Positions 8,180 to 45,390 of a stretch of 64,000 nucleotides of DNA are shown piece after piece. A program made the translations under genes and the position numbers. The notes beneath the pieces are model-generated. The model was not told where the DNA came from. It did no database searches and saw only the letters and a program-made list of their open reading frames with translations. The DNA comes from a virus: the IMG/VR virus record IMGVR_UViG_3300025073_000397. One strand, given 5' to 3'. Each line of letters opens with the position of its first letter. Position 1 is the first letter of the stretch.

Positions 8180-11100
8180 TTACACTATCTTGGGTCCATC
8201 GGGCGAGACCGAGCAAGACAAGGTGCAGGTATCATTGGAACAGAACTTCTCGGTCTCCTCATGGACAGCCGAACAGAGATTCAACGGTTTGATCCGCTTG
8301 ACCAACTTCTCGTACTCTTCCTTAGTGATCTCAATGTAAGGTGCCTGCTCATACCCATGGTCTTTTAAGGGGACAAACGATACCCCCTTGAGTCGAGTCT
8401 CAAAAGCTTCCAGACACGTCTTGATATCCTTGACTTCGTGGGGCTGAAAGGAAACAGAGATGCTGACAGCGTTGTCACTCCACTCTCTCTGCAAATCAGC
8501 TGCATTCATCATCTGTTCCCAAATCGTCACGTCCTTCTTCGACTTGGAAAAGTTCTTCTCATGAATGGGGAATGAGACCACAGAAGTCTCCGGGGCGCAT
8601 TTATCAGCTTCAACGAGATATCCTGCCTTGCGGCAAGCCTTGACCAGCGGGGATATGTCAGCCACCCGAACGTTCCTGATGTAGTATTCAGCATGAGGAT
8701 AGTGAATTCCGGGGGTGGCACCAACAACCAAAGAAATTGACCCAGATGGCTTAACGCTTGTGGTCTTAATCGACCGTGGGATGCAAAGCCATTCTGAGTA
8801 AATCTTGTCCAGTTCTGCTACGTACCTGTACCCTTCATCGCACCATCGCAGGTATTCCCGCCTGCCCAACTTCGCCATGGCCTGGACAATACCGGACTGT
8901 GAGCACCCTATCCGCCGATTCCGCATTGCAACCGCATTAGCTCGAAGATCATGTGTGGGAACAAGAGTCACAGTCTTAGCATACAGATAGGCGAACTTCA
9001 GAGTACGTTTAAAATCCTCCAGGGTGTCATGATTAGCAGGGAAGGACTCGACTAGGCAGCAGCACTCATATGCAGTTAAGGTTTGCTCCATGCATTGTGG
9101 TGTGAAGATACCCCCACATTCCATGGCAACTGGGTCGAATGCCGTTACAATCCCAACAGTATGGTTCACATCCACACTCAAATTATAGGCGGGTTCCTCA
9201 TCATCCAAGAAACGCAACGCCTTAACTGTATGATTGTACTCCCCCACAAGAGCCTTTAAGTGCCGAAATCCCCGCACAGCAAAGGGGTTCTGTGTGTGCC
9301 CCTCTCCTTGGAATCTGAAAGCAACCCCTCTCCTTCTGCACTCGTTCTCCCACTCCCGCTTAAGTGGCTCCCTTCCCAATGATACCTGCAATTCCTTGTA
9401 GGTGGAGACCTGATTGTGTCGCACTTGCTGCTGCCGTGCCGCATAACTCCGTCGCAACCCCACTGTTCTCTTTTGGATGTGCTTAGCATTCTTGTTCATA
9501 CAGGAACGGGAGCAAAATTCCGTGCTCCTTCTCCCCCATGGGACTAGACGTTTTTGGCCACATATCTTGCATTCACAAACAACTTGCAGACACCCATCCA
9601 CCCAAGTTGTCTCTAACTCCGTAGTAGCCTCTATCTCCTGGTAGTATTTAGCCAACTCTCGTCTTCGCCACTCGCTCATAGCGCGAGCCGCCCTTACTCG
9701 TTGTGCCTCTGTATGGAATCCCAATTTCTTACGATACTCCGGGTCTTTACACCTCTCCTTAGACTTGGCCCCTATTTTTGCTCTGGTCTCATCAGACTGT
9801 CTTCGGCCCCACATGGGATTCCGTACCCCCACGTTATCCCGTTGCCCATGGAATCTCTCATGATCCTCAAAATACATGATCTCCAAATTGGACGGGGCAT
9901 TGTTCAAGGGATTGTAGTCCCGGTGATGGACCACGATTCCCCCCTTTACCCATCCGGCTACTTTACCTGCATCGTACATCCGTGCCCATTTGTCGGGTTC
10001 CATGAATTTAGCGACCAACCGATGCTCATAAACTTTGTCCGCAGTACAATCCAATGTGTTGCAGTTCACTCTCAGATACCTGTCCTTTCCCTGGACGATA
10101 CATTCTGGACGTTTGGTGAACCTGGGCAGGCTATCCCCAACTTTCATATCTTTGGCCTCACACTTAGTCCCATCCAACCTGACCATCTTGTGGTCGGGTG
10201 TCACCTTTAAAACAGCACCATCATCGAGTACAACCTCCATGAATTTAGCTCGCATCCTCGTCATACGAGGATGCCTGCCAATCTGCACCTCAACCCGCCC
10301 TTCCGCAGTGAGTGAGTAGACAAGGATATCATCCCCCTCATCTGCCAATTGCCGAATAGGCACTGCACCACGCCCATCTGCCACCGCTATAAGGGTACTT
10401 CCAGCGAAACAAGGGTTAGCACCCATCACTCTAGCATCCACATAATTAGGCTTATCCCGCATCCGAGCGTAGGCCCGAGCATTCTCCAACCAGAAGAATC
10501 CTGGCTCCCCATTCGTAGCCGCCAACTCCGCAGTTCTGCTATAATCCATTCCCACCTTAGCCAGGATGGAATTGTTCGAACACCACCTGTGACTATTCAA
10601 TTTGGCCTTATCTTGTTTGAGGCTCATGAACTCCTCATCATCGGGTTCCCCAAACATAGCCTCCGCTGTCCTACGCAAGCCCCCGGACACAACACACTTC
10701 CCGATCAAATTGTAGATGTCCACAATCGTGGCAGTCGTAATCTTGTACGGCTCCCCATCCGCTGGGGTCAATAGCCCCGTTAAATCTCCAATCAAGTTGA
10801 TCAGGGGGTCAGGCCCAGCGGACACACCCCCAAACGTCTTGAGAGGCGAGCCAGCTGGCCGTATCTGCGAGTAGTCTATGCTGGTGGGGTAAAAGCCCTT
10901 TCCCACAAAGGAATTCAAGACTACCCGTAGTAATTCAACCCACCCTTCCCGACTATCATCCACCACATAAGGCTTGTCGGTATACCGGGGGACCTGAATC
11001 TTGACTTTCCCCGCCCCCCTTACATCCCCCGATATCCCAACACCCAGCATCGAGAAATCCATTAGGAAACAGAAAGGCCCAGCAAAGTCTACATCTATGT

Positions 11101-11578
11101 CTTTCGTACTGGAAAGCCCACAGTTCATTAAGCAGGCGCTACCCTTCTTCTCCACAATGTCTGTCCCCATCCCCCAGAGACCCCTCCCTGGAGGCAGGAA
11201 CTTGAACTGCCACATACGAGTGTACATCTCTTGCGCTGAATTCTGGGCTTTGGCTTCGTCCCAAGGGAGCTTCAGATCCCAACAGTGCCTCTTTTGGATG
11301 TTGTAGACGCCCTCCACTACACGCCTGCAAGTCTCCCGGAACTCCTCTGTAGTACCATCTGGTTGAGTTCTGGCGTAGGTCCTCTTAAAAATGAAATACC
11401 CAAGACCCCCATACCCCCACTCTGGCTGTTTGCCTGCGAACTGGTCAAGGAACGACTGAGATATCTTGAAGACCCGGACCTTTCTGTCACTCGGAGAATA
11501 GAACTCTGACATGATTGGTTGTGCCCTTTCAGTGTAGGAGATTAGCTCAATGGATTCTGCATCGTCCCAATTGACCAC
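8180..11578 (-). CDS. nrdJ: class II (adenosylcobalamin-type) ribonucleotide reductase NrdJ, interrupted by an intein
   Basis: 1132 aa. Class II RNR blocks FLPPGRGLWGMGT, SACLMNCGL, GEPGFFWLENARAY, ...VMGANP|C. After the insert the extein resumes with CMEQTLTAYECCCLVESF, matching NPCxE...YExCNLGSI. The spliced size would be about 693 aa. Confidence 0.85.
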   Translation of the reverse strand: MVNWDDAESIELISYTERAQPIMSEFYSPSDRKVRVFKISQSFLDQFAGKQPEWGYGGLGYFIFKRTYARTQPDGTTEEFRETCRRVVEGVYNIQKRHCWDLKLPWDEAKAQNSAQEMYTRMWQFKFLPPGRGLWGMGTDIVEKKGSACLMNCGLSSTKDIDVDFAGPFCFLMDFSMLGVGISGDVRGAGKVKIQVPRYTDKPYVVDDSREGWVELLRVVLNSFVGKGFYPTSIDYSQIRPAGSPLKTFGGVSAGPDPLINLIGDLTGLLTPADGEPYKITTATIVDIYNLIGKCVVSGGLRRTAEAMFGEPDDEEFMSLKQDKAKLNSHRWCSNNSILAKVGMDYSRTAELAATNGEPGFFWLENARAYARMRDKPNYVDARVMGANPCFAGSTLIAVADGRGAVPIRQLADEGDDILVYSLTAEGRVEVQIGRHPRMTRMRAKFMEVVLDDGAVLKVTPDHKMVRLDGTKCEAKDMKVGDSLPRFTKRPECIVQGKDRYLRVNCNTLDCTADKVYEHRLVAKFMEPDKWARMYDAGKVAGWVKGGIVVHHRDYNPLNNAPSNLEIMYFEDHERFHGQRDNVGVRNPMWGRRQSDETRAKIGAKSKERCKDPEYRKKLGFHTEAQRVRAARAMSEWRRRELAKYYQEIEATTELETTWVDGCLQVVCECKICGQKRLVPWGRRSTEFCSRSCMNKNAKHIQKRTVGLRRSYAARQQQVRHNQVSTYKELQVSLGREPLKREWENECRRRGVAFRFQGEGHTQNPFAVRGFRHLKALVGEYNHTVKALRFLDDEEPAYNLSVDVNHTVGIVTAFDPVAMECGGIFTPQCMEQTLTAYECCCLVESFPANHDTLEDFKRTLKFAYLYAKTVTLVPTHDLRANAVAMRNRRIGCSQSGIVQAMAKLGRREYLRWCDEGYRYVAELDKIYSEWLCIPRSIKTTSVKPSGSISLVVGATPGIHYPHAEYYIRNVRVADISPLVKACRKAGYLVEADKCAPETSVVSFPIHEKNFSKSKKDVTIWEQMMNAADLQREWSDNAVSISVSFQPHEVKDIKTCLEAFETRLKGVSFVPLKDHGYEQAPYIEITKEEYEKLVKRIKPLNLCSAVHEETEKFCSNDTCTLSCSVSPDGPKIV
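9095..10411 (-). mobile_element. intein (~439 aa) with HNH homing-endonuclease domain, inserted at the RNR NP|C active site
   Basis: Block A is CFAGSTLIAVADG (compare Sce VMA CFAKGTNVLMADG). The HNH motif is VVHHRDYNPLNNAPSNLEIMYFEDHERFHG. Block F is AYNLSVDVNHTVGIV. Block G is GGIFTPQ followed by Cys+1, a C-terminal Gln instead of Asn, as in a minority of inteins. Boundaries were inferred by eye. Confidence 0.6.
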
Positions 11579-11900
11579 GCCAAATCAAACTGGCCGGAGT
11601 CAATGGCCTCATTATCTTCTTAGACAAACGCCCTTTTAAAGCAGCCACCTTCTCCCCTGCGGTAGGAAACCATGCCCAATCCGAGACTCGAATTCGAATA
11701 GTGCCGCCTCTAGTCGTGAGGTCATCCACTACAGCCAAGACATCTATGGCTTGGTGGCTATTCAACTCATGAGGTAAATCTGAGTCATAGTTGTGGTGGT
11801 TCCTAATCCAGGCACCCACCGCTGCCTTTGTCTTCTTCCACTTTTTTCTGTCGAAGATTAAAGTTTCTTCATGACTTCCAACTACCTTCTGTATCGGCAT
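11547..11900 (-). CDS. hypothetical protein
   Basis: 117-aa ORF that overlaps the nrdJ start by 32 nt, with ATGA-type packing against holA. Confidence 0.4.
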   Translation of the reverse strand: MPIQKVVGSHEETLIFDRKKWKKTKAAVGAWIRNHHNYDSDLPHELNSHQAIDVLAVVDDLTTRGGTIRIRVSDWAWFPTAGEKVAALKGRLSKKIMRPLTPASLIWRGQLGRCRIH

Positions 11901-15022: not shown

Positions 15023-16231
15023 CTATCCACTGAAAAAACTAGAAGGTGCATAATGGGTAGAAGGAACAGGGAATCCATTGAAAGTAGACGCGTAACCAAG
15101 AGTGTAAGCGCCTGCGTTGATGATGTAGACTCGGTCTCCAATCTCCACAGAACTCATCTCCTTATCTCGGAACATGACGTCCACACTATCACAAGATGGG
15201 CCTGCTATTGTGTATATTTCTTGTTTGGCCGTATCTGGAGAGATGGTATCCTTTCTTGTGAGGATCTTGTAATTGAACCCACAAGAGGTTTCCATGAGTC
15301 CGTTAAAGACTCCAACATCCAGATACACCCAAGTCTTACCCTTGTAGATTCGTTTTGAGACTACTTCGGCAACCATGACCCCTGCATCCCCAACCAATCC
15401 TCTACCAGGCTCTATGATCAATTTGGGGCTATGGGGGAATTCCGTGGCTATGAAGTCTCGGATTGTCCTTCCGATCACATCCATAGATGGAATAGTCTTA
15501 AGGTGCTGAATTGGGAACCCACCCCCCATATTGATCCAACCTAAATGGATACCTGCTTCTGAACAGTCTTGATAGATGTCTCTAACCATGGACAAGGCAT
15601 GCGTCCAATTTTCAGTAGACAAAGATTGTGACCCCGGGTGGAAAGCTATTCCGAGAGGTTGCAACCCTGCTTGTTGGATCTGTTTGAGTAGTGAGCAAGC
15701 TTCATTGGGGGCACACCCAAACTTTTCAGACAGTGGCCAATCCGATGCCTTTCCACCCACGTCTACTCGCACGAAGATCTTAGCGTTCGGGGCGACGGCC
15801 TTGAATTTAGCTATCTCAGATGGGGAGTCCATTGAAAAGACTCGCACTCCTCTATCGTACATCTTCTGTAGGTGGGTTAGCTTCCTGAAAGGTGCACTAT
15901 GTATGATGGTTTCAGGCGGGGCACCCAAACCCAATAGCTTCTCTACTTCATACCAAGATGCCGTCTCGAACTTCCCTATTCCCTGGCTGAGAAGCCGGTG
16001 AATGACATGAGGGTCAGAGTTAGCTTTGATGGCATAGTGGATATCGGCATCCGGGAGAGCATGGTGGAGCTTCCACAGATTAGCCTCTACCAGAGATAGA
16101 TCCAGGTAGAGGAAGGGGGTCTCGAAGGCGTCAGTCTGGTGGATGATTTCGGGAGTGAGTTCCAAGGGATTGCCCTCGCTGGTGTCGTGTAGCCACACGA
16201 ATTGGGGAAGGTGCCATGCCATCGTCGGCAT
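15023..16231 (-). CDS. PLP-dependent decarboxylase, fold type III (ornithine/diaminopimelate/arginine decarboxylase family)
   Basis: 402 aa. The PLP-lysine motif is HYAIKAN, the Gly-rich loop is GGGFP, then EPGR, and the substrate-Cys motif is IAGPSCDSVD. Confidence 0.85.
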   Translation of the reverse strand: MPTMAWHLPQFVWLHDTSEGNPLELTPEIIHQTDAFETPFLYLDLSLVEANLWKLHHALPDADIHYAIKANSDPHVIHRLLSQGIGKFETASWYEVEKLLGLGAPPETIIHSAPFRKLTHLQKMYDRGVRVFSMDSPSEIAKFKAVAPNAKIFVRVDVGGKASDWPLSEKFGCAPNEACSLLKQIQQAGLQPLGIAFHPGSQSLSTENWTHALSMVRDIYQDCSEAGIHLGWINMGGGFPIQHLKTIPSMDVIGRTIRDFIATEFPHSPKLIIEPGRGLVGDAGVMVAEVVSKRIYKGKTWVYLDVGVFNGLMETSCGFNYKILTRKDTISPDTAKQEIYTIAGPSCDSVDVMFRDKEMSSVEIGDRVYIINAGAYTLGYASTFNGFPVPSTHYAPSSFFSG

Positions 16232-28542: not shown

Positions 28543-31413
28543 TTATCCCTCTTCGTCCATGATGGCACCCAGCATCTTCTTGAATTCAGTTGGTGAGACG
28601 CCCTTCATGCGCTCTTTGGTCTCAGGCTTCGCCTTGGCAAGGAACTTCGCCATGAGTTGCGCATCAGACAACTTGTGCCCCTTGGGGGACTTATCCTTAG
28701 CAAAATCCTTGATGGCCTTCTCATCATCCTTATGGACTTTGGGCTTATCTCCCTTGGCAAGAGATTTCTTCTGGAGTTTCAGAAGCGTTCTTTCTATCTC
28801 TTTGTGCTCATTCTCTTCGTCTGCCGAGAAGTACTTTGCTTTCTGCCACTTCTTGACCTGATCAAGGGCATCATCGACAGTCTCCTTGTCTGGAGAGTCC
28901 CCTCTCTCCATTGCCTTCCCAATCTCCGAAAGGGCTCTTTCCCCCTTAGAACCGCTGCTCCCCCAGTTTTGAAGGAGACGCCCACCGTGTTCCTTTCTTG
29001 GAACCCACCCAGCCCCAGGCAGATGGGGCTGGACTTTCTTTTCGCTCCCTAGGCCGATAGCATCAAAGAAGTCCTCTTTCAGCATCTTGTGAGAAGTGAT
29101 AGCATCAGGATGATTCCTTTTTAGCCACTTGTCGAGGTTTGAAAGGTACCTTTGATAGCCTGCGTTCTCCAAATTCTTTTTCACCTTCCCGAGATCAAGG
29201 AAACTATCATTCTCCATCGTGGCATCTTTAATGACAACATCTTGCAGTTGCCGCTTATTTTCCTTGTCCCCCTTCAGTTCATCTCCCGCCTTACCGGTGT
29301 TGAGAACCCTTCGTTCCCAAGCACCCTTATCCAAAGGTTTCTCACCATCTCTACGCTTCTTCTCAACGTACTTCTGATAGGTGGGTGCCGCTGCCTCACG
29401 AAGCATCGGCACAAGATGCTTCCTCAATTCCGGGTTCTCGTGCGCCAATTTCATGAGACCGGCGACAAGGTTCATTTTGGATGTACCTCCAATGACAAGG
29501 AAATCTCGTATGACTTTCAAGAGTCTCTTATCAGCCACTTCGAAGAGAGTATTGAATTCCTTACCTGGAATCAATCCAGGTAAACGTACCATCCCAGCCA
29601 AACGGTGCAATTGCTTGACTGCAGCCAAGGGGTCCCCAATCAGATAGCGAGTGAAGCAATCCGCTACTTGTACTGTATGTGATCCCATCGTTTGTGTTAG
29701 GTGATAGATGGTATCCTGGAATGCTGTAGCCAATGCTTCGTAAATCTCGTTAAATGCTTCCCCAGAAGGTTCCACATGGAACCCCTTGACCCTGGTTGCC
29801 AACTTCTGGAGATCCGTTAAGGCAGCCTGCGGGTTGCCAAACAGATACCGTGCGAAACAATCCGCCACTTGGATTTCTACTCCGGCAGTCTTGCTTGTGG
29901 ACGCCTCTTTTTCCCCCCGGTTCCGTCTCATCTCTGCCTTAGCCTGTGACAATGGTTTGGGCCTGAACCCCTGGTCACGTTCGATAGCAGGAGCGCCAAA
30001 CTTCCTGAGACTGGATATCTCTCTCAATGAGATGTATCCCAGTTCTCCGTTGCCTGGGTGGATCTCAGCCCACCCGAACATGGTATCCTTGCCATCGAAC
30101 TCCGTAATGAACCATGTGCCACTACCAAAAGCATTGAAGAACTTGACCCACACCATGGGGTCTTTGTCGTTCTCTGTGGAGTAGAGAGGGGGTAGTTTAT
30201 GGAGATTCTCAGACGTGAGTAGTTTCTGCCATGTACCAGCGGCCTTACCCATGCCAACGAGAGTTTCAAAGCGATCAAAGAAGATTTCAGCCAGGTTCTG
30301 GTAGCCCACTACTTCTGCGGCCATAGCACGACGGAATGCCTTGGCATACCCTGTAATGGATTTTGCCATGCGGCTGGCAAGGGCTTCCATCTTGGATGGT
30401 TCTCCCCCAGCCTTAGTCACAATGTCTTCTATCCGCCTACGATCCTTAAGCTCGATCCCTTTCTTGCGGAGACCGTCTACCAATGCTTGTGATGGTAGTG
30501 CCGCTTTCTTGCTGGCAAATTTACCCGCAAGGTCAATCAAATCCTGACGTGCCTTCACGGCTCCAGGGAACTTCTTTGTCAGATGCTCGGTCGGCTGTCC
30601 TGTACTGACCCCCCTCAGGTAAGCCCGATAGTGTAGATCATCCTGTTGTGTGCCCTTATTTGCATCTAGGAGTTTCTTGGCGGCTCCCTGCCAATTGGGG
30701 GCTGCTGTCTTGTTCCCAGCATCCTTCCTGAAATTATCCTTATTCTCCCCGTGTTGTTTCCACCACTCTTTCTTCTGCTCGTCACTCATATTCTCGGTGG
30801 GGTCAGCGGGTTTACCCTCTTCAAACTTGGAGAGTTTCTCATCGTTGGAGAGTCCAGCCAAATGACGTTCTGCTATCCGACGCATCATGTCCAAGTTGCC
30901 CTGTTCGTATAAGAGGTTGTTCTGAAGCTGCTTCACAACATCGAAACCCCCGGGGATGGGTCGCTCATACCCATGGTCGATCTCATTCGGATAGATGGGT
31001 TTCCCATCTGGATTGCCAGAATAGGAGCCTTCCTTGGCCACCTTTTCTACTTTGCCATGGTACTTATCCCACTTTGCTTTATCCTCAGGAGACATGTTCT
31101 GCTTGGGATCGGCAGGCTTGCCTTCCTCAAATTTGGATAATTTGTCATCCCCAGAAGCATAGTGCCAACGGGACGACGAGTCATTCCAGTCACCCGTAGG
31201 CTGGTAGTCGGCTTGCATAACCCACGCCCCGTAACCAGTCTTATATCCACCAGTCGGACCAATCTGTGGTTCGATCAGTCGCTTCCAGAGCTTGTGTGTC
31301 CTTTCATCCGGGAGTTCAACTTCCCAATCCGTTCCTGCTCCGGTTACTTTAGCTGTGATACCCGCCTTGGCCAAAAGAACCTGTATCTGTCGTTTCTGAA
31401 CAGTAGTAGACAT
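28543..31413 (-). CDS. large hypothetical protein with two pairs of internal repeats
   Basis: 956 aa. Pair 1 is DDKLSKFEEGKPADPKQNMSPEDKAKWDKYHG and NDEKLSKFEEGKPADPTENMSDEQKKEWWKQHG. Pair 2 is VQVADCFARYLFGNPQAALTDLQKLA... and VQVADCFTRYLIGDPLAAVKQLHRLA.... Both pairs diverge at synonymous sites in the DNA. Confidence 0.7.
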   Translation of the reverse strand: MSTTVQKRQIQVLLAKAGITAKVTGAGTDWEVELPDERTHKLWKRLIEPQIGPTGGYKTGYGAWVMQADYQPTGDWNDSSSRWHYASGDDKLSKFEEGKPADPKQNMSPEDKAKWDKYHGKVEKVAKEGSYSGNPDGKPIYPNEIDHGYERPIPGGFDVVKQLQNNLLYEQGNLDMMRRIAERHLAGLSNDEKLSKFEEGKPADPTENMSDEQKKEWWKQHGENKDNFRKDAGNKTAAPNWQGAAKKLLDANKGTQQDDLHYRAYLRGVSTGQPTEHLTKKFPGAVKARQDLIDLAGKFASKKAALPSQALVDGLRKKGIELKDRRRIEDIVTKAGGEPSKMEALASRMAKSITGYAKAFRRAMAAEVVGYQNLAEIFFDRFETLVGMGKAAGTWQKLLTSENLHKLPPLYSTENDKDPMVWVKFFNAFGSGTWFITEFDGKDTMFGWAEIHPGNGELGYISLREISSLRKFGAPAIERDQGFRPKPLSQAKAEMRRNRGEKEASTSKTAGVEIQVADCFARYLFGNPQAALTDLQKLATRVKGFHVEPSGEAFNEIYEALATAFQDTIYHLTQTMGSHTVQVADCFTRYLIGDPLAAVKQLHRLAGMVRLPGLIPGKEFNTLFEVADKRLLKVIRDFLVIGGTSKMNLVAGLMKLAHENPELRKHLVPMLREAAAPTYQKYVEKKRRDGEKPLDKGAWERRVLNTGKAGDELKGDKENKRQLQDVVIKDATMENDSFLDLGKVKKNLENAGYQRYLSNLDKWLKRNHPDAITSHKMLKEDFFDAIGLGSEKKVQPHLPGAGWVPRKEHGGRLLQNWGSSGSKGERALSEIGKAMERGDSPDKETVDDALDQVKKWQKAKYFSADEENEHKEIERTLLKLQKKSLAKGDKPKVHKDDEKAIKDFAKDKSPKGHKLSDAQLMAKFLAKAKPETKERMKGVSPTEFKKMLGAIMDEEG

Positions 31414-33959: not shown

Positions 33960-34314
33960 CCATTAACTTCTTCCACCTACGTTGCTTCAATTCATCTTTG
34001 CTCTTGAGGGTCAACCCGCCCCATCCCGATCTAGGGTGATTCCACACAATGACAGTTGCATGGTCAGAGAGCAGGAGCAGCCAACTATTGCCCGCTATAA
34101 CGGATAGGGCACCCAGTGTATCTACTTCATTGTCCCGCATATCGGATTTTCGGGTCAGGTAGAGATCAAACACCGTAGCAGCTTTAATAAAGTGCTGAAG
34201 GGTCAGGAGATTCATGCCCCCCCGCACCTCATCGGACTCCCCCTTTGCAGCATTCAGGCTATTCAACATCTCTCGCACCGAACAAGCAACAGCACAAGCA
34301 TCTTCAAAGTTCAT
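33925..34314 (-). CDS. hypothetical protein
   Basis: 129-aa ORF that abuts the GroEL gene stop. Confidence 0.4.
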   Translation of the reverse strand: MNFEDACAVACSVREMLNSLNAAKGESDEVRGGMNLLTLQHFIKAATVFDLYLTRKSDMRDNEVDTLGALSVIAGNSWLLLLSDHATVIVWNHPRSGWGGLTLKSKDELKQRRWKKLMDGSKPTEFPDA

Positions 34315-35939
34315 TATCTGACTCTAGTGATAGCAGCATCAGCAGCCAACAGAGTTGTCGCCGCTGACACTGCTGATCCTATCACATGCTTGACTACAAG
34401 GTAAGGATCAACTATCTCTGGTGCCCCCCCGAAATCTCTGGCAGTATGTCCAAAGAGATCCCACCCGACCCAAGAGTCTGCACACGACCTTAACTTATCT
34501 ATGGTACTCTGGGGTTCCACTCCAGCGTTAAGAAGTAATCGTAAGATGGGGACCTTCAACGCTTTTGCCAACACTTTACCACCTACCGTCTGCCCCTCTG
34601 GAGTTTCCTCTAATGCTTGGCTGAGTCGCAGATATGCAACGCCTCCTCCTGGTAGGACACCACCCCTCAAGGCCGCATCTAAGGCATGTATGGCGTCTTC
34701 CACTCTAGCACGTCTTTCTTTGATTTCAGTATCAGTGGTTCCACCCACTTTCACGAGGGCCAAGCCCCCCTGTAACATCGCCATACGTTCCTTCAGCCGA
34801 TCCGTGTCATAAGGGTGCAGGGATGCTTCTATCTCTTGTTGTAGCCTTTGTAGCCTCTCCATGATGAAGGGTTGCTTGTCAGGGTAACCCTCCAACACGA
34901 ATTTGTTGAGCCCCAAAGTAGCTTTTCTGACGGAACCGAACCATTCTGCCTTGAACTCTTTGTGATCATAACCAGCATGGGAGTCAACATAGAGGGCCCC
35001 GGAGAGAGCGGCAATGTCTTTCATGGACTCTTCTCTGTACGGTCTGTCCCCTACTCGGAAGAGTGGGGCACATCGTAATCGAGGCCCATTGTCCTTGGGG
35101 ATGTTTCGGTCATTCATACTCAGAGTGGCCAATGCCCCACCGGATATCTCTTTGGATACGATCAGGCAGGGGTTCTCAGGGAATTTGCTGGCTTCCTCCA
35201 GTATCCTAAGAACATCCTTCACGTCGGACAGCATCTTTGGAACTACTGCTACCAGTGCCCCATCTAGGACTCGTTCTGTTGGAGCCTCCAGAAAATAGGG
35301 GCTAGTACACCCCTTCAGAGAAATGCCGCTCTTCAACTCCAGGGTGATAGGTTCTGTGGATTCACCTCCGGTCACTTGGATATTCCCAAGCTTCCCGATC
35401 TGGATGCTAGCGGTAGCTAGAGCATCCGCTATGTCTCTGTCTCCATTGGAGGCGATCATAGCCACTCGTTGGATCAGACTCTTCGTCCCTATAGGTAGTG
35501 CCATGTCCTGAGCCTTACTCAGAACTACTGTGCAAGCATCCCTGATCTCTTGGACCAAACCCACAGGGTTTTGGCTTGAGACGATAGCTTTAGCACCTTC
35601 CTGGATGATACCGTTAGCAATAACGGCTGTAGTTGTTGTCCCGTCCCCAACATCTTTGTTGACCCGCAGGCAGGCATCGATGATGATAGCAGCCCCTAAT
35701 TGTAAGAGAGGATCGTTCAGGGAGAGTTCCCGGGCTATAGTTGCACCATCTTTCGTGAGGATTCGACCGGACACTCGTTCTAAGAGTACTGTGGATGCTT
35801 GGGGGCCGAGACTAGAGCCTATAGCCCTAGCAGCTATTCCTGCCCCTCTGGCCATACCCTTGAGTGCGTTCCACCCGAAAGCAATTCTAGTGCTTTTCTT
35901 GGCTCGGGCTGTCTTCGAACCACGTCCCCAAACGTTCAT
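34314..35939 (-). CDS. groEL: GroEL/Cpn60-family chaperonin
   Basis: 541 aa. IAFGWNALKGMARGAGIAARAIGSSLGPQASTVLLE...ITKDGATIAREL...DVGDGTTTTAVIA is collinear with the GroEL N-terminus ([35 protein letters not shown]...DGTTTATVLA). No GroES-like gene is adjacent. Confidence 0.9.
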   Translation of the reverse strand: MNVWGRGSKTARAKKSTRIAFGWNALKGMARGAGIAARAIGSSLGPQASTVLLERVSGRILTKDGATIARELSLNDPLLQLGAAIIIDACLRVNKDVGDGTTTTAVIANGIIQEGAKAIVSSQNPVGLVQEIRDACTVVLSKAQDMALPIGTKSLIQRVAMIASNGDRDIADALATASIQIGKLGNIQVTGGESTEPITLELKSGISLKGCTSPYFLEAPTERVLDGALVAVVPKMLSDVKDVLRILEEASKFPENPCLIVSKEISGGALATLSMNDRNIPKDNGPRLRCAPLFRVGDRPYREESMKDIAALSGALYVDSHAGYDHKEFKAEWFGSVRKATLGLNKFVLEGYPDKQPFIMERLQRLQQEIEASLHPYDTDRLKERMAMLQGGLALVKVGGTTDTEIKERRARVEDAIHALDAALRGGVLPGGGVAYLRLSQALEETPEGQTVGGKVLAKALKVPILRLLLNAGVEPQSTIDKLRSCADSWVGWDLFGHTARDFGGAPEIVDPYLVVKHVIGSAVSAATTLLAADAAITRVR

Positions 35940-40559: not shown

Positions 40560-41519
40560 TCATCGCGTTGCCTTCTTCGGTTGGGAGCGGGATTTGACTT
40601 GCCACACGAAGCCGAGTGCGTCTAGTTGGGAGACCATTTCAGGAATGATACGTAAGGCACCCTTGGAGGTTTTTTTGGCTGTACGGATGCAATTGACACG
40701 AACCCCCAATTTGTATCCGTCACTAGATGTATAAGAACGCCTGATCAGGCAATCGCCAAAGGCGTCTTTGTAGGCTGTAAGATGTTCCATAAAGGGTTGG
40801 AACCACTTTCCTTTGGTGGTGGCATCCCACACGAATCCAAGGGCTTCTAGTTGAGAAACCATCTCAGAAGTAATACGCAGGCCATTGCCCCTCTTCCTAC
40901 CATTTCGTATATCATTCACCCAGCGTCCCAGGGGGGTATCCATCCGGGCAAATGTGTAAGAAAGGCACTCGACAATCCCCATGCTCCCTTTTGTACACTT
41001 CCAGATGTTCTAAACATTCAGGGAACCACACTTTGTAACCCACAAACCAGACGAACCCGATAGCATCAAGTTGCTCAACCATCGCAGCGGAAACCTTTTT
41101 GCCTCCAACTCCATTTCGCCCTAGACGGACATAGTTCAGTTGCTTTCCGAGTTTGTACCCATCCCTACAGGTGTACGAGCGGGAAACCAAACAATCCCCA
41201 TACTCCCCCTGTATTCCCGCATATGGTCCAAAAATTCGGGGAACCACTTTCGGTAGCCTACTTCCCAGACAAAGCCCAACGTGTCAAGTTTAGAAATCAT
41301 CCAAGGCGTGATATGGAGACTCTTGAACTCTTTATGATTCTGCCGAATGTTATGCACCTGACCACCGAGTTTGTAGCCGTCTGGGCAGGCATACGACAGG
41401 GGCACTAACCCAGACCCATACTTCTCTTTGTACGTCGTCAGTCGCTCAACGAACTCGTCAAACCAGTGAACATCTGGGTCAGTAATGCCAAGGAAGACAG
41501 CATACTCGTGGAGATTCAT
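40560..41519 (-). pseudogene. HA-domain repeat gene (~5 units) disrupted by two homopolymer-associated frameshifts
   Basis: Track ORFs 41136..41657, 40912..41247 and 40560..40982 together tile one HA-repeat reading frame. It starts MNLHEYAV... at 41519, paralogous to the 608-aa gene start MNLYEYAV.... The frame switches occur at a G5 run (minus-strand cagggggag, ~41200) and a C6 run (tacccccctgg, ~40935). Confidence 0.5.
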
Positions 41520-43342
41520 GCTGCTGACCTCAAAGGACGCCCACCCTGTGCAGAGGCTTCCCAGACAAAACCCAAAGCATCCAATTGATGAATCCTTTCG
41601 GGAGTTAATTCCATTCCGCCGTACCCTTTTCGGGCCAGCCGAACACGGCCAACACACCTTCCCAAACGATAGCCATCTGGGCTGACATATTTCTGTACAA
41701 CCATGCAGTCTCCCTTACTCAGCTTATAAGCTTTTAGATGTTTAATGAATACAGGGAACCAGCGCCTTTTAGGCTTAGCGGCCCATACAAGTCCAATAGC
41801 ATCTAACTGTGAGAGCATCTCAGCAGTCACCTTCATCCCACCAGTCCCCCGAATACTGGCACAAACAACCGCGACTTGTTGCCCCAACTTATAGCCATCT
41901 GGTGAGACATACGAATGTGTAATTCGGCAACTACCATACTCTGTTTTGTACAGATTCAGGTGCTGTACAAAATCCGGAAACCAGCGTCCAGACCAATTAG
42001 CATCCCATATGAACCCCAACGCATCAATCTGATCAATCTGATCAGACGTCAAAGACCCGTGCCTATAGTACTGCCGAACAGTAGAGACATGCTTACCAAG
42101 AGCATACCCATCTGGGCTAATGTAAGCCGTGGGTGGAGAGCCCCCCCCCAGTTGATTCTGGTACAGACGGAGATGTTCGACAAAAGAAGGGAACCACTGT
42201 CTTGTTGGGGGTACATCCCATACGAAACCGACCTCCTCTAGTTGAGCTTCCATTTTGGGGGGGATGTACCACCCGTGTTTACTTTTGACTGTGGGATATC
42301 GATGCCCTATCCGGATGCTGCTCGTCAAATGGCCAAGTTTGTAACCATCTGGGCTGACATATCCGACTGGAATTCTACTGTCCCCATGTTCCTTCATGTA
42401 AGCAACCAGATGTTGGAGATATTCCGAAGAACTGCGGGTACGTCTTGTCCCCTTCCATATGAATTCCATGGCATTCAATTGAGAGACCATCTCACGGGTT
42501 AGCCTATTTTTTACCGGATTCGACTTCATACCACGTATGGTCCCCACCCGATGCCCCAAATGATAACCGTCTGAGCAAACGTACCCTGTGGGGATCTGGC
42601 AATCCCCTGTCTTCACCTTGTATTCAGATAGATGCAGGATGAATTTGTCAAACCAATTTCTGTCCCATACAAACCCAAGCGAATCCATCTGACGGATCAA
42701 TCCTTGGGGTATGGGGCCAATTTTCCTACTGGATCTCATCCTAGACGCTCGTGATCCCAATCTGTAGCCATCTGGACAGGTATAAGAGTCAGGCACATCA
42801 CAATGTCCGTACTCTCTCCTGTAGAGCCTGAGATACCTTATAAAGTCAGTCTGCCACGAACCGTTGTTCCACACAAAGCCAAGTGAACTGAGTGCGGACT
42901 CCATCGCGGGGGTTACACGCCTACTCCCCCTAGACGAATTCTTTGCGTACCGGATGCTAACTATCATTTCCCCTAGTTTATAGCCGTCGGGACAGACATA
43001 TTGCTTCACCACACGGCAATCTCCGAACTCTGCCCTATATTCGGACAACTTTGTACAAAACGCCGTAAACCAATCAAAACGCTGTACTTGCCACACAAAA
43101 CCAAGGGAGTCCAATTGCACGATCATATCTTGCGAAAGGCCAGTATCACCAGCTTGCATTAAATGCCTAACCCTCATGACCCGTGAACTAAGGCAATAAC
43201 CATCTGGGCAAACACACGGGAAGGGAGTCAGACAATCTCCGTGATCCTTCTTATACTCTTTCAGATGCTCAATGAAATTCTCAAACCATGGCACTCTTGG
43301 TTTTGTCCACCCCTGGGAAACGGCATATTCATAGAGGTTCAT
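41516..43342 (-). CDS. protein made of ~9 tandem helicase-associated (HA) domains
   Basis: 608 aa of repeated W(F/W).F..HL..Y+.E.GDC.VP..Y.CPDGY+LG..V..IR.......L....QLD.LGFVW units. It has an ATGA overlap with the upstream SF2 helicase gene. Confidence 0.7.
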   Translation of the reverse strand: MNLYEYAVSQGWTKPRVPWFENFIEHLKEYKKDHGDCLTPFPCVCPDGYCLSSRVMRVRHLMQAGDTGLSQDMIVQLDSLGFVWQVQRFDWFTAFCTKLSEYRAEFGDCRVVKQYVCPDGYKLGEMIVSIRYAKNSSRGSRRVTPAMESALSSLGFVWNNGSWQTDFIRYLRLYRREYGHCDVPDSYTCPDGYRLGSRASRMRSSRKIGPIPQGLIRQMDSLGFVWDRNWFDKFILHLSEYKVKTGDCQIPTGYVCSDGYHLGHRVGTIRGMKSNPVKNRLTREMVSQLNAMEFIWKGTRRTRSSSEYLQHLVAYMKEHGDSRIPVGYVSPDGYKLGHLTSSIRIGHRYPTVKSKHGWYIPPKMEAQLEEVGFVWDVPPTRQWFPSFVEHLRLYQNQLGGGSPPTAYISPDGYALGKHVSTVRQYYRHGSLTSDQIDQIDALGFIWDANWSGRWFPDFVQHLNLYKTEYGSCRITHSYVSPDGYKLGQQVAVVCASIRGTGGMKVTAEMLSQLDAIGLVWAAKPKRRWFPVFIKHLKAYKLSKGDCMVVQKYVSPDGYRLGRCVGRVRLARKGYGGMELTPERIHQLDALGFVWEASAQGGRPLRSAA

Positions 43343-45339
43343 GCTACATCCATCCCTTTCGTTAATCGGATGACTTGGTCATTGATATGCGTCCAGTTGA
43401 CCACTCCAGCGGGAAGGCCAAAGTAAGGGGATGCATCCCCTGACGTGGAAATCGGTGCCACGCCGTTGTTCTTATTGAGGTAGTCAAACATAGCCACTCG
43501 TATTTGCTCCAGAGTGAACTTTGGTGCCTTGAATCTTGCTCGGAGTCCCTTGGCAATCTCTTTAGCTGTAATGCCCCGGAACTGAGACATATGCCCGATG
43601 ACCGTCGCCGTTTGTTTCGTATTGGCTATTTCCTGTGCGAACTCAGCGATCACACCATCAAAGATCCCCTGCAACTCATCCCGGATGATACGGGAGTCCC
43701 CGCTGAAACCACCCATCTGCTTGATCCTGCCATTCAACTTGGTCTTGAATACAGTGAATGCCAGTGCCTTCCGTTTGATCATGTCATAGGCCAGGGCACG
43801 TTTGGCCCTAGCCAATACATCTCCTTCCAATCCCATCCTGACGGTGAAGAAGTCCACTACATCCTGTGTGGTGGGTTTGGCTATCCCATCCTCCTGCAAA
43901 GCATTGATAGCCATAACCATCTGCCCGGTAGCCTCACGGCATTGCTGGACATCCCCCCCGATGTAGTTGACCACATCTTCCCACGTTTCCTCGTAGGGTC
44001 GTTTCTTACCCGTAGGCTTCACTCCAAATCGACGGGGGAGATTCCCCAAGTACCCCTGCCCGATCTCTACATCAGCCATGAAACAAGCAGTCAGGAAGGC
44101 ATGGTCCTTATGCTGCTGTTCAAAGGCATCAAACACTTCTGATGATGCGCTGGGGACAAGGAACGTCAAGACAGTCGTGTTCTTGTGCTGCTCCGGGTAA
44201 CCTTCAATGTCACCCTTGAAACGCAAACCCCTACCCAACTTTTGTAAGATAAGCCCAAAGGAATGAGTCAGCCCAATATTGTAGACATGACTGCACAGTG
44301 GCCAATCTGTCCCCTCATTGAACCGGGCGCATGCTAGGATCACTTCCACTTTAGAGTCGGCATACACCTTCACCAACCGTTCGGTTCGTAACAGAGCTTT
44401 CAGCGCACAAGTTACTCGGACCCCACCCTTTACAGCATTATGGACATGGACACCACGCTTAGTGAATTCAGCCATCAACCGGTTTGCCCACCTCTCAGAT
44501 CTCTTGGGGGGAACAATGACAACCGCTTTGGGATGCCCATCCTTTTCCCATAGATCCACGATCTGTTTACTGGACTCAGGGGAAGCATAGGCCATTGCTC
44601 CACCCGCAAGCTGCTCTACAGAAGTCGCCTGCATGGAGATAGGGCAGGATCTGATCAGGACATTGCTAGGAGCGAACTCCCCGGATTCAATGTGATCTGC
44701 CAGAGTACGAGTGTACCTGGGGGCAAACTCTCCCATAAGGATATCATCATCCCTACGGAATGGAGTCGCAGTCATATGGACTACTGTACCACCACGCTCA
44801 AGCCATGCCTTGGTGAAGGCACCAACACAGTTACCTATGGCGGCATGGTGGGCTTCATCCAGTATCAGGATGCACTTGGACAGGTCTTCCGGGAGGAGTG
44901 TCTGATCTTCCTTGAACCACCGGGAAACTGCTTGCTGAGTTGTGACCAGAGTCCGTTGAACTGGATTGACTGCCCGGACATGTGCTCTGAATTGGGAACG
45001 ACGGCCCTTACTGACCTGGAACCACTGCTTTGCCCTTACCATTATATTGCACAGCACAGAAACCCGCCCAGGTACACTTTCCGGGGAGGGCAGTATGTCC
45101 AAGTCATCAGAGTAAATGAAAGCATCGGTAATTTGGCGCTGTGGCGCTACTACGACAGCCGACACAAATTGCCGTGTATTGAGTACCCTTTCCACTAAGT
45201 AAGTCCCCATCAGGGACTTACCAGACCCTGGTGGTCCACTCAGCACCACCTCTTTACAACCAGTGGTGAGGCACCGAAACAGGTAGTGGAAGCATTCCTG
45301 CTGGTAAGGTCTCAAGGTACGTGTTTGATGCAACGCCAT
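43339..45339 (-). CDS. SF2 helicase, ResIII/DEAD-like
   Basis: Walker A is VLSGPPGSGKSLMGTYL; the DEAH box is ILILDEAHHAA; the helicase-C region is around MTATPFRRDDD. The track start at 45357 is GTG, so the ATG at 45339 (MALHQTRT) was preferred. Confidence 0.8.
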   Translation of the reverse strand: MALHQTRTLRPYQQECFHYLFRCLTTGCKEVVLSGPPGSGKSLMGTYLVERVLNTRQFVSAVVVAPQRQITDAFIYSDDLDILPSPESVPGRVSVLCNIMVRAKQWFQVSKGRRSQFRAHVRAVNPVQRTLVTTQQAVSRWFKEDQTLLPEDLSKCILILDEAHHAAIGNCVGAFTKAWLERGGTVVHMTATPFRRDDDILMGEFAPRYTRTLADHIESGEFAPSNVLIRSCPISMQATSVEQLAGGAMAYASPESSKQIVDLWEKDGHPKAVVIVPPKRSERWANRLMAEFTKRGVHVHNAVKGGVRVTCALKALLRTERLVKVYADSKVEVILACARFNEGTDWPLCSHVYNIGLTHSFGLILQKLGRGLRFKGDIEGYPEQHKNTTVLTFLVPSASSEVFDAFEQQHKDHAFLTACFMADVEIGQGYLGNLPRRFGVKPTGKKRPYEETWEDVVNYIGGDVQQCREATGQMVMAINALQEDGIAKPTTQDVVDFFTVRMGLEGDVLARAKRALAYDMIKRKALAFTVFKTKLNGRIKQMGGFSGDSRIIRDELQGIFDGVIAEFAQEIANTKQTATVIGHMSQFRGITAKEIAKGLRARFKAPKFTLEQIRVAMFDYLNKNNGVAPISTSGDASPYFGLPAGVVNWTHINDQVIRLTKGMDVA

Positions 45340-45355
45340 GCTAACTCCTTTCAAC

Positions 45356-45390
45356 ACTTGGTACTACCCACCCAACACAAACCCTAACAA
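45356..45390 (-). promoter_or_regulatory. promoter motif instance D, upstream of helicase + HA-repeat operon
   Basis: TACTACCC at 45362-45369, a 14-nt spacer, then CTAACA at 45384-45389. Confidence 0.6.

Follow-up and report, generated by a model that had tools for sequence, protein, structure and literature searches.

Ribonucleotide reductases (RNRs) are the second most intein-rich bacterial proteins (PMC4760082), and the site directly N-terminal to the thiyl-radical Cys is the most frequent one for contiguous inteins of class I and class II RNRs (PMC2677866). Here we describe an intein at this site in a class II RNR gene of the ribonucleoside-triphosphate reductase (RTPR) type, which lies on the minus strand of IMG/VR virus record IMGVR_UViG_3300025073_000397; the whole 64,000-nucleotide stretch that was analyzed is called the window. 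The contiguous RIR1, NrdA and NrdJ inteins (e.g. the NrdA split inteins; Dassa et al. 2009, PMC2677866) are like the window intein in host enzyme family, in the NP/C site (a slash marks the splice junction), in class-1 chemistry with Cys1 and Cys+1, and in using the catalytic Cys as the +1 residue. Those described have a LAGLIDADG nuclease, a free-standing nuclease or none, and end in His-Asn or Ala-Asn, whereas the window intein has an in-frame HNH nuclease with a zinc ribbon, no His at G:6 (the penultimate position), Asn at F:4 and Gln at G:7. A native Pro at position -1, as in the window, is found in the Mth RIR1 mini-intein.

In reviews, inteins with a terminal Gln count as atypical and often as slow (PMC4031507, PMC8229266). 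Gln-terminated inteins do splice, and a C-terminal Gln (or Asp) can cyclize (Mills, Johnson and Perler, PMC4031507); functional inteins without the G:6 His also exist (PMC4031507). An earlier note on this DNA had mentioned a Gln-ended RNR intein from an iridovirus, and the literature agrees: the RNR intein of Chilo iridescent virus (CIV) has been shown by experiment to splice, and Gln makes it more efficient than Asn does (PMC4031507, PMC549080). In PolII inteins, cyclization of the Gln yields an aminoglutarimide and the block F His lies where it can activate the Gln (PMC8175363, PMC8229266), and those of Pyrococcus abyssi (Pab) and Methanoculleus marisnigri (Mma) splice slowly with the native Gln (PMC4031507). 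Unlike the window intein, the PolII inteins of these two species and of P. horikoshii are nuclease-free mini-inteins of archaeal DNA polymerase II. They keep the penultimate His, and their splicing is slow and confined to high temperature.

Phages and cyanobacteria have been known to carry in-frame HNH inteins since 1997 (Dalgaard et al.), and a preprint regards such inteins as rare and non-canonical (bioRxiv 10.1101/2025.01.02.630785). They are like the window intein in architecture, with the HNH nuclease nested in frame within the Hint domain. The actinobacteriophage HNH inteins surveyed in that preprint lie in DNA polymerase, capsid, terminase and thymidylate synthase, not in RNR (bioRxiv 10.1101/2025.01.02.630785).

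Precursor gene and insertion site

The precursor gene consists of the following parts (ORF, open reading frame).

8180..11578, minus strand: RTPR-type class II RNR precursor with one intein, 1132 aa from the GTG at 11578 (ORF list, TIGR02505, PDB 1L1L)
10412..11578, minus strand: N-extein, 389 aa, ending ARVMGANP (Pfam, 1L1L alignment)
9095..10411, minus strand: intein, residues 390-828, 439 aa, 50.5 kDa, pI 9.3 (profiles, translation, AlphaFold2 model)
9092..9094, minus strand: Cys+1, codon TGC, equivalent to L. leichmannii C408 by gap-free alignment of gTNPCGEisl with gANPCMEqtl
8180..9094, minus strand: C-extein, 304 aa plus stop, beginning CMEQTLTAYECCCLVESFP (translation, alignments with 1L1L and homologues)

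The intein opens at a TGT codon (Cys; 10409..10411) and reads CFAGSTLIAVADG, and the codons that follow its end, TGC ATG GAG, encode Cys-Met-Glu; in precursor numbering, Cys1 is Cys390 and Cys+1 is Cys829. The spliced exteins aligned with L. leichmannii RTPR (PDB 1L1L; E=4e-90), and the alignment was continuous at the junction (vdgdvegTNPCGEislangepCnlfevfp in 1L1L, vdarvmgANPCMEqtltayecCclvesfp in the window after removal of the insert). Because the alignment runs gap-free across TNPCGE and ANPCME, the intein sits between the Pro and the thiyl-radical Cys, which is where the earlier note had placed it, at NP/C(x)E of a class II RNR with the thiyl Cys as +1. An alternative junction before the upstream Cys (AME/CGGIFTPQCME) was rejected; it would follow a residue other than Asn, Gln or Asp, eight surplus residues would remain in the catalytic loop, and the alignment with 1L1L is gap-free only with Q/C.

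The catalytic set of the RNR is kept, with ANPCME, LMNCG, YECCCL and FCSNDTC matching positions of 1L1L or of homologues. The N-extein contains the RNR_Alpha and RNR-II insertion (RNR-II_ins_dom) domains, both above the Pfam cut-offs, and an active-site Cys (in LMNCGLS) equivalent to C119 of L. leichmannii, and the C-extein contains the Glu equivalent to C408+2, the second active-site Cys (C419 equivalent) and a C-terminal C-x4-C pair (FCSNDTC). The best NCBIfam model was TIGR02505 (monomeric, adenosylcobalamin-dependent ribonucleoside-triphosphate reductase; 1.9e-88 on the precursor). On the spliced sequence it scored 320.4 bits (E=2e-95), short of the equivalog cut-off of 340.05; we therefore call the enzyme RTPR-like, a class assignment that does not fix whether the substrate is a nucleoside triphosphate or diphosphate. 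The predicted masses are 128 kDa for the precursor, 78.0 kDa for the spliced RNR and 50.5 kDa for the intein, in line with the approximate 77 and 48 kDa estimated earlier for the two products.

An uninterrupted NPCxE was found in 117 of the 120 nearest homologues, where x is Ser (88), Gly (12), Val (9), Ala (6), Leu (1) or Cys (1). In the window, x is Met (ATG, 9089..9091; N-P-C-M-E). This Met at +2 is the only feature unique to the window copy, the Pro at G:6 being rare but recurrent. It could reflect co-adaptation of intein and extein, protection of the homing site or neutral change. The class I RNR of E. coli has Leu at the position after the catalytic Cys.

The called start of the precursor (GTG at 11578) overlaps an upstream ORF (11547..11900) by 32 nt. 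Judged from the sequence, the ATG at 11510..11512 (M23, MSEFYSPSDRKVRVF) is more likely to be the biological start, because the N-termini of homologues lie about 8-10 residues ahead of DRKVRVF; from M23, the spliced RNR would have 75.5 kDa.

Intein anatomy and fold

The insert has the layout of a Hint splicing domain interrupted by an HNH endonuclease and DNA-binding modules. Its elements are as follows.

10373..10411, minus strand: block A, CFAGSTLIAVADG, with Cys1 as the nucleophile for the N-S acyl shift (family alignments)
10190..10201, minus strand: block B, T-P-D-H (T71, H74), assisting step 1; T71 is 97% and H74 100% conserved in 113 relatives, and both are invariant in the alignment behind the family profile
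9848..9934, minus strand: HNH nuclease motif, VVHHRDYNPLNNAPSNLEIMYFEDHERFH (H162, H163, N171, N175, H184, H188; PF13392, family alignment)
9767..9820, minus strand: NUMOD3-like DNA-binding motif, NPMWGRRQSDETRAKIGA (weak PF07460 match, E=0.079; PF07460 precomputed on relative P0002; N-P-M-W-G core conserved)
9500..9577, minus strand: four-Cys zinc-ribbon-like element (C281, C284, C300, C304) in the endonuclease/DNA-binding region, 95-99% conserved
9146..9190, minus strand: block F, AYNLSVDVNHTVGIV, with Asn410 at F:4 (99% conserved) and the conserved His, H417 (99%)
9095..9115, minus strand: block G, GGIFTPQ, with Pro438-Gln439 and the Gln codon CAA at 9095..9097 (direct DNA reading and translation)

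The anatomy proposed earlier for 9095-10411 (N-extein end ARVMGANP, start CFAGSTLIAVADG, HNH motif VVHHRDYNPLNNAPSNLEIMYFEDHERFH, block F AYNLSVDVNHTVGIV, end GGIFTPQ) was reproduced in full in the DNA and its translation. Two blocks depart from the class-1 consensus. Block F has Asn410 instead of Asp at F:4, where 112 of 113 family members have Asn; F:4 is one of the less conserved intein positions, with Asp, then Cys, then Trp (PMC4031507). Block G has Pro438-Gln439 in place of the penultimate His and terminal Asn.

The N-terminal intein model TIGR01445 (intein_Nterm) matched the window protein with 33-34.5 bits, above its cut-off of 24.5. PF14890 (Intein_splicing) matched insert residues 9-417 (E=1e-7; 32.0 bits, cut-off 35.8), and PF13392 (HNH_3) matched residues 153-179 (E=6e-5; 23.0 bits, cut-off 24.8), the latter domain being precomputed on relatives. 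All six HNH positions, which are 98-99% conserved in the family, are retained. No intein C-terminal model was among the listed profile matches, which fits the atypical block G.

An AlphaFold2 model was built from an 11-sequence alignment of the intein with eight extein residues on each side. The mean predicted local distance difference test score (pLDDT) was 77, with values of 83-92 in both Hint lobes, and the model has a beta-hairpin region around model residues 276-299, in keeping with the zinc-ribbon-like element. The top 50 Foldseek matches in PDB were solely inteins and Hint domains (PI-PfuI, DnaE, DnaB, RecA, NrdJ-1, PolII, Hedgehog); the PI-PfuI, DnaE, DnaB, RecA and NrdJ-1 inteins were matched with a probability of 1.00. 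These matches and the profile scores bear out the Hint domain, and the HNH_3 match points to the HNH domain, that had been expected in the 439-aa segment (residues 390-828). By sequence, the best PDB matches of the N-terminal lobe were the cyanobacterial DnaE inteins of Ssp and Npu (E=1e-3), which were also among the best fold matches. DnaE inteins differ from the window intein in being naturally split and free of a nuclease domain, in their terminal Asn and in their host protein. They have no penultimate His and end in AAN or ASN, comparable to the end FAAN of the window intein's relative P0078.

Conservation across 113 relatives reached at least 80% at 77 positions, and the window intein keeps 66 of them, including Cys1, Thr71/His74, Asn410, His417, the six HNH positions and the four zinc-ribbon Cys. 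Most of the changes are conservative; V408A in block F and some changes around the zinc ribbon are not. The combined support from profiles, alignments and fold for an intein is far beyond chance.

An HNH-intein family with Gln or Asn ends

A profile of the intein alignment was searched exhaustively against 1.84 billion cluster representatives; the window intein was one of the profile seeds, and its own profile score is thus circular. The profile matched 30,919 representatives at E<=1e-3 and 1,840 at E<=1e-30. Among the top 150 matches, almost all were full-length, lay within long RNR proteins and started at N-P/C. The full-length members share a start signature (C-x-x-G-x-T-L-I-A-V-A-D-G-R-G-A-V, with C1, A11, D12, G13 and R14 conserved at 99-100%), the HNH motif, the zinc ribbon, an end of the form Y-N-H-x-V ... 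V-Y-N-x-x-V-D-x-x-H and a long F-G loop, and the window intein has all of these. Over the whole intein, it is 57% identical to P0138, 53% to P0139 and 52% to P0078.

In 113 parsed metagenomic representatives, the junction was Gln/Cys in 63 and Asn/Cys in 50, and none of the 113 had a penultimate His. A penultimate Pro preceded Gln in P0149 and P0211 and Asn in P0275; Pro-Gln ends were found in at least three members besides the window intein (P0149/L023, P0211 and L028), and among GTDB genomes they occur in L028 and in the closed genome of Ca. Electronema halotolerans (INTPQ/CGE). GTDB species-representative genomes were also searched, with an alignment of the N-terminal intein part and with a Cys-x-Glu required after the junction for parsing. 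The family was present in 73 loci, 69 of them parsable, with Gln in 35 (CAG 21, CAA 14) and Asn in 34 (AAT 28, AAC 6). The bacterial hosts included Saprospiraceae/Lewinellaceae, the isolates Deinococcus aquatilis and D. frigens, Candidatus Electronema, Acidobacteriota, Chloroflexota and Eremiobacterota, and the archaeal hosts included Promethearchaeota, Hodarchaeota, Heimdallarchaeota and Woesearchaeota. The range of the family covers phage-like contigs, at least six bacterial phyla, and Asgard and Woesearchaeota archaea.

The earlier note had regarded an HNH nuclease, a terminal Gln and a penultimate Pro as an unusual combination. Its structural reading stood, as described above, and the rarity was not supported: the site is the commonest one in RNRs (PMC2677866), and in the family of 1,840 representatives the parsed members use Gln about as often as Asn (63 vs 50; 35 vs 34), have no penultimate His and show Pro-Gln repeatedly. 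The combination is unusual only against textbook inteins and is ordinary within the family.

On a neighbor-joining tree of 114 inteins, the terminal residue required at least 30 changes between Asn and Gln, compared with a mean of 37.6 for shuffled labels; this count is rough, as the tree consists of representatives at 50% identity and its deep branches are poorly resolved. Independently of the tree, pairs of inteins with 78-82% identity differed in having Gln or Asn, for example L048 (INNRQ, CAA) and L053 (VCNRN, AAT). A switch between the two residues takes two nucleotide changes, via Lys or His codons. The nearly 1:1 ratio and the frequent switching suggest that Gln and Asn are close to equivalent in this scaffold.

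The two closest relatives of the window intein, P0138 (FAFQ/CGE) and P0139 (FTFQ/CGE), end in Gln, and the Gln of the window is therefore most simply explained as inherited rather than as a recent lesion. A recent degenerative change from Asn, hinted at by P0078 (FAAN) and P0001 (YLAN), was rejected for this reason and because about half of the family ends in Gln. Seven residues before the terminus, the window intein has Cys432 (9116..9118, in AMECGGIFTPQ), which is conserved in its sub-clade as C-[DHKGS]-G-[IVL]-F and absent in other sub-clades. The ends in this sub-clade are (AME)CGGIFTPQ in the window, CDGIFAFQ in P0138, CHGVFTFQ in P0139, CDGVFTMQ in P0155, CKGLFSLN in P0140 and CDGIFSPN in P0275. 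Together with Cys1 and Cys+1, Cys432 could form a redox-sensitive disulfide.

Other insertion points were seen in the same HNH family. In P0200, P0220, P0251 and P0262 the intein lies one residue downstream (N-P-C/C-F-A-G), ends in VRN/SEQ or LYQ/SEQ and relies on Ser at +1 as the nucleophile. The position equals the NrdJ integration point (N-P-C/C type), reported as new for split inteins by Dassa et al. 2009 (PMC2677866), and the family has thus slid by one codon between Cys+1 and Ser+1. Outside RNRs, a member was found in P0007, a NifU/IscU-like protein (GSPA/CLTGDTLIAVADGR...VIVKN/CGD), and RtcB-like proteins are further hosts, as judged by a match to NF052663 ('intein-containing RtcB family', E=5e-19). 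A literature search, with most subscription journals outside its coverage, found no paper on a Gln-rich HNH RNR-intein family.

Probable splicing and homing

The anatomy, insertion site, fold, family membership and family-wide use of Gln were observed. On these grounds, we consider the insert, with a probability of roughly 0.8, to be a genuine class-1 intein with an in-frame HNH homing endonuclease, most probably splicing-competent, in an RTPR-type RNR. The 128-kDa precursor would fold and the two Hint lobes (intein residues 1-110 and 392-439) would meet. Cys1 would attack the carbonyl of Pro389 in an N-S acyl shift, aided by Thr71/His74 of block B, and Cys+1, the future thiyl-radical Cys, would receive the N-extein by trans-thioesterification. 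Gln439 would then cyclize to a glutarimide, most likely with the assistance of His417 in block F, since the family is without a penultimate His and Asn replaces Asp at F:4. An S-N shift would form the Pro-Cys peptide bond and complete the active-site loop G-A-N-P-C-M-E. Because the catalytic loop is split by the insert, the RNR would be inactive until splicing. The HNH nuclease, with its NUMOD-like and zinc-ribbon modules, would cleave RTPR alleles that lack an intein where they encode the conserved NPC(S/G)E, and the element would be copied in by repair (homing). Splicing of the window intein, its rate and its nuclease activity are what we infer from the comparisons.

Several points weigh against this interpretation. 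A literature search found no experimental splicing or cleavage data for the window intein or members of the HNH family, and the HNH_3 and Intein_splicing scores are slightly under the Pfam gathering thresholds. The block F Val, 100% conserved, is Ala in the window (V408A). Even among family members a penultimate Pro is rare (3 of 113), and it may affect the cyclization of Gln. The Met at +2 is absent from the 117 intein-free RTPR relatives and from the 113 junctions of the intein family, which have Gly, Ser, Val or Asn. The sampled population is nearly clonal (99.97% identity) and gives no within-lineage view of purifying selection. The sampled part of the genome is 64 kb, and a second RNR that relaxes selection on this one is possible outside it.

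Some of these features could also mean that the intein splices slowly or conditionally, which we regard as unlikely. The terminal Gln, the Pro at G:6, the Pro at -1 and the Met at +2 would slow step 3 or make it dependent on conditions, and redox dependence via Cys1, Cys+1 and the loop Cys432 is a possibility, in which case maturation of the RNR would be gated post-translationally and not constitutive. The PolII inteins offer a precedent, as the native Gln slows step 3 in those of Pab and Mma and disulfides of the catalytic Cys switch these inteins (PMC4031507, PMC8175363); the conservation of Cys432 in the window sub-clade and the uniqueness of the Met at +2 point in the same direction. However, Gln alone does not mean slow splicing, given that in the CIV RNR intein Gln supports better splicing than Asn does (PMC4031507), and the near-equivalence of Gln and Asn suggested above for the family scaffold argues against a slowing effect of this residue.

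Very unlikely, in our judgment, is a decayed relic that no longer splices, in which the change from Asn to Gln and the His-less end would mark the loss of splicing. The RNR would then be a translated pseudogene, and deoxynucleoside triphosphates would be supplied by another RNR or by the host. Every catalytic residue of the intein, the nuclease and the RNR is kept in an intact 3.4-kb ORF, and in G+C content the intein (0.508) does not stand out from the exteins (0.519 and 0.498). A terminal Gln without a penultimate His is normal for the family, also in cellular genomes and the closest relatives. Decay would fit the rare Pro at G:6, the unique Met at +2 and V408A, the genome is known only in part and may hold a second RNR, and surveys suggest that some intein-interrupted phage RNR genes may be degenerating (PMC3653736).

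As a homing intein that probably splices, the window locus alone matters little: it is one more intein at the best-known RNR hot-spot, and each of its deviations from the textbook has a functional precedent. It is a ready experimental candidate, with an expected conversion of 128 kDa to 78 plus 50.5 kDa at an unusual Pro-Gln/Cys-Met junction. The family-wide interchange of Gln and Asn is the more interesting by-product and is worth specialist attention. A family with Gln as the majority state would lend itself to studying how glutarimide formation is promoted by the Hint active site. A bolder reading, which we hold to be unlikely, is that the family forms a large, mechanistically distinct class-1 subclass (HNH, no G:6 His, Asn at F:4, long F-G loop) in which Gln and Asn are functionally interchangeable at the cyclizing position, and that in the window sub-clade the conserved loop Cys together with Cys1 and Cys+1 could make RNR maturation redox-conditional. 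If this were true, the textbook view of a C-terminal Gln as rare and sub-optimal would be wrong for a major natural family, and a new scaffold would be at hand to study and engineer glutarimide-forming splicing.

Inteins in related RTPRs

The RTPR clade is an extreme intein hot-spot. Across the 120 nearest RTPR homologues, at least six intein sites were found (KR/C, NNC/F, RR/C, NP/C, EL/C and ELC/C), and intein-bearing homologues included P0056, P0069, P0077, P0088, P0098, P0110, P0111, P0116, P0126 and P0129. Some profile matches were 1,500-3,000 aa long with 3-12 intein-like stretches. The same NP/C site holds a LAGLIDADG intein in P0056 (end VHN/CGE) and a homologous HNH intein in P0078 (FAAN/CSE). 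The nearest intein-free RTPR was P0011, with 71% identity.

At another site (ESFEL/C or ELC/C, before NLVETYP), P0098 and P0116 have a second, unrelated intein family that ends in VLTYQ/C, and P0126 has a canonical intein (VVHN/C) there. As the inteins of P0098 and P0116 are unrelated and Gln-ended, Gln termini arose at least twice in these RNRs. The CIV intein, of the LAGLIDADG type with the end LTGQ/C, resembles these two (LTYQ/C, at a different site) rather than the window intein.

Population variants and genome context

The identical protein (P0010/P0130) was found on ENA, Logan and JGI contigs, including the Rifle aquifer 'ANAN16' assembly. Three independent assemblies carried the gene with 100% DNA identity, and its flanks were 99.8-99.99% identical. 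An assembly chimera was ruled out, as the identical gene occurs in ENA, Logan and JGI assemblies of different samples. The sole amino-acid polymorphism seen among population variants of the 1132-aa protein was a Tyr-to-His change in P0132 at about intein residue 145 (WARMYDAG to WARMHDAG, window about 9977..9979), just upstream of the HNH motif.

The source genome is probably that of a large uncultured phage from groundwater, as inferred from its many ORFans and its phage-like replication genes. Of the large ORFs scanned, about half were without a Pfam or PHROG match, no virion or structural phage genes were identified among the ORFs scanned in the 64-kb window, and the window contained no tRNA genes. 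None of 50,697 phage records had a nucleotide match to the window; in cultured phages, RTPR-type RNRs were present in 1,206 records, the best of which was 43% identical to that of the window. The window encodes RecD2-like, SNF2-like and DEAD-box helicases, homologues of DNA polymerase III delta and delta', a UvsX/RecA-like recombinase and a nucleotidyltransferase, together with the following genes.

34314..35939, minus strand: phage-type GroEL chaperonin (phrog_5725, 2e-90)
15023..16231, minus strand: Orn/DAP/Arg decarboxylase
28543..31413, minus strand: 956-aa DUF2958 protein

In addition, a 608-aa protein with seven 'helicase-associated' (HA, PF03457) repeats (41516..43342, minus strand; E=2e-76) is encoded directly downstream of a ResIII/DEAD helicase (43339..45357, minus strand), an unusual pairing within an apparent phage replication module.

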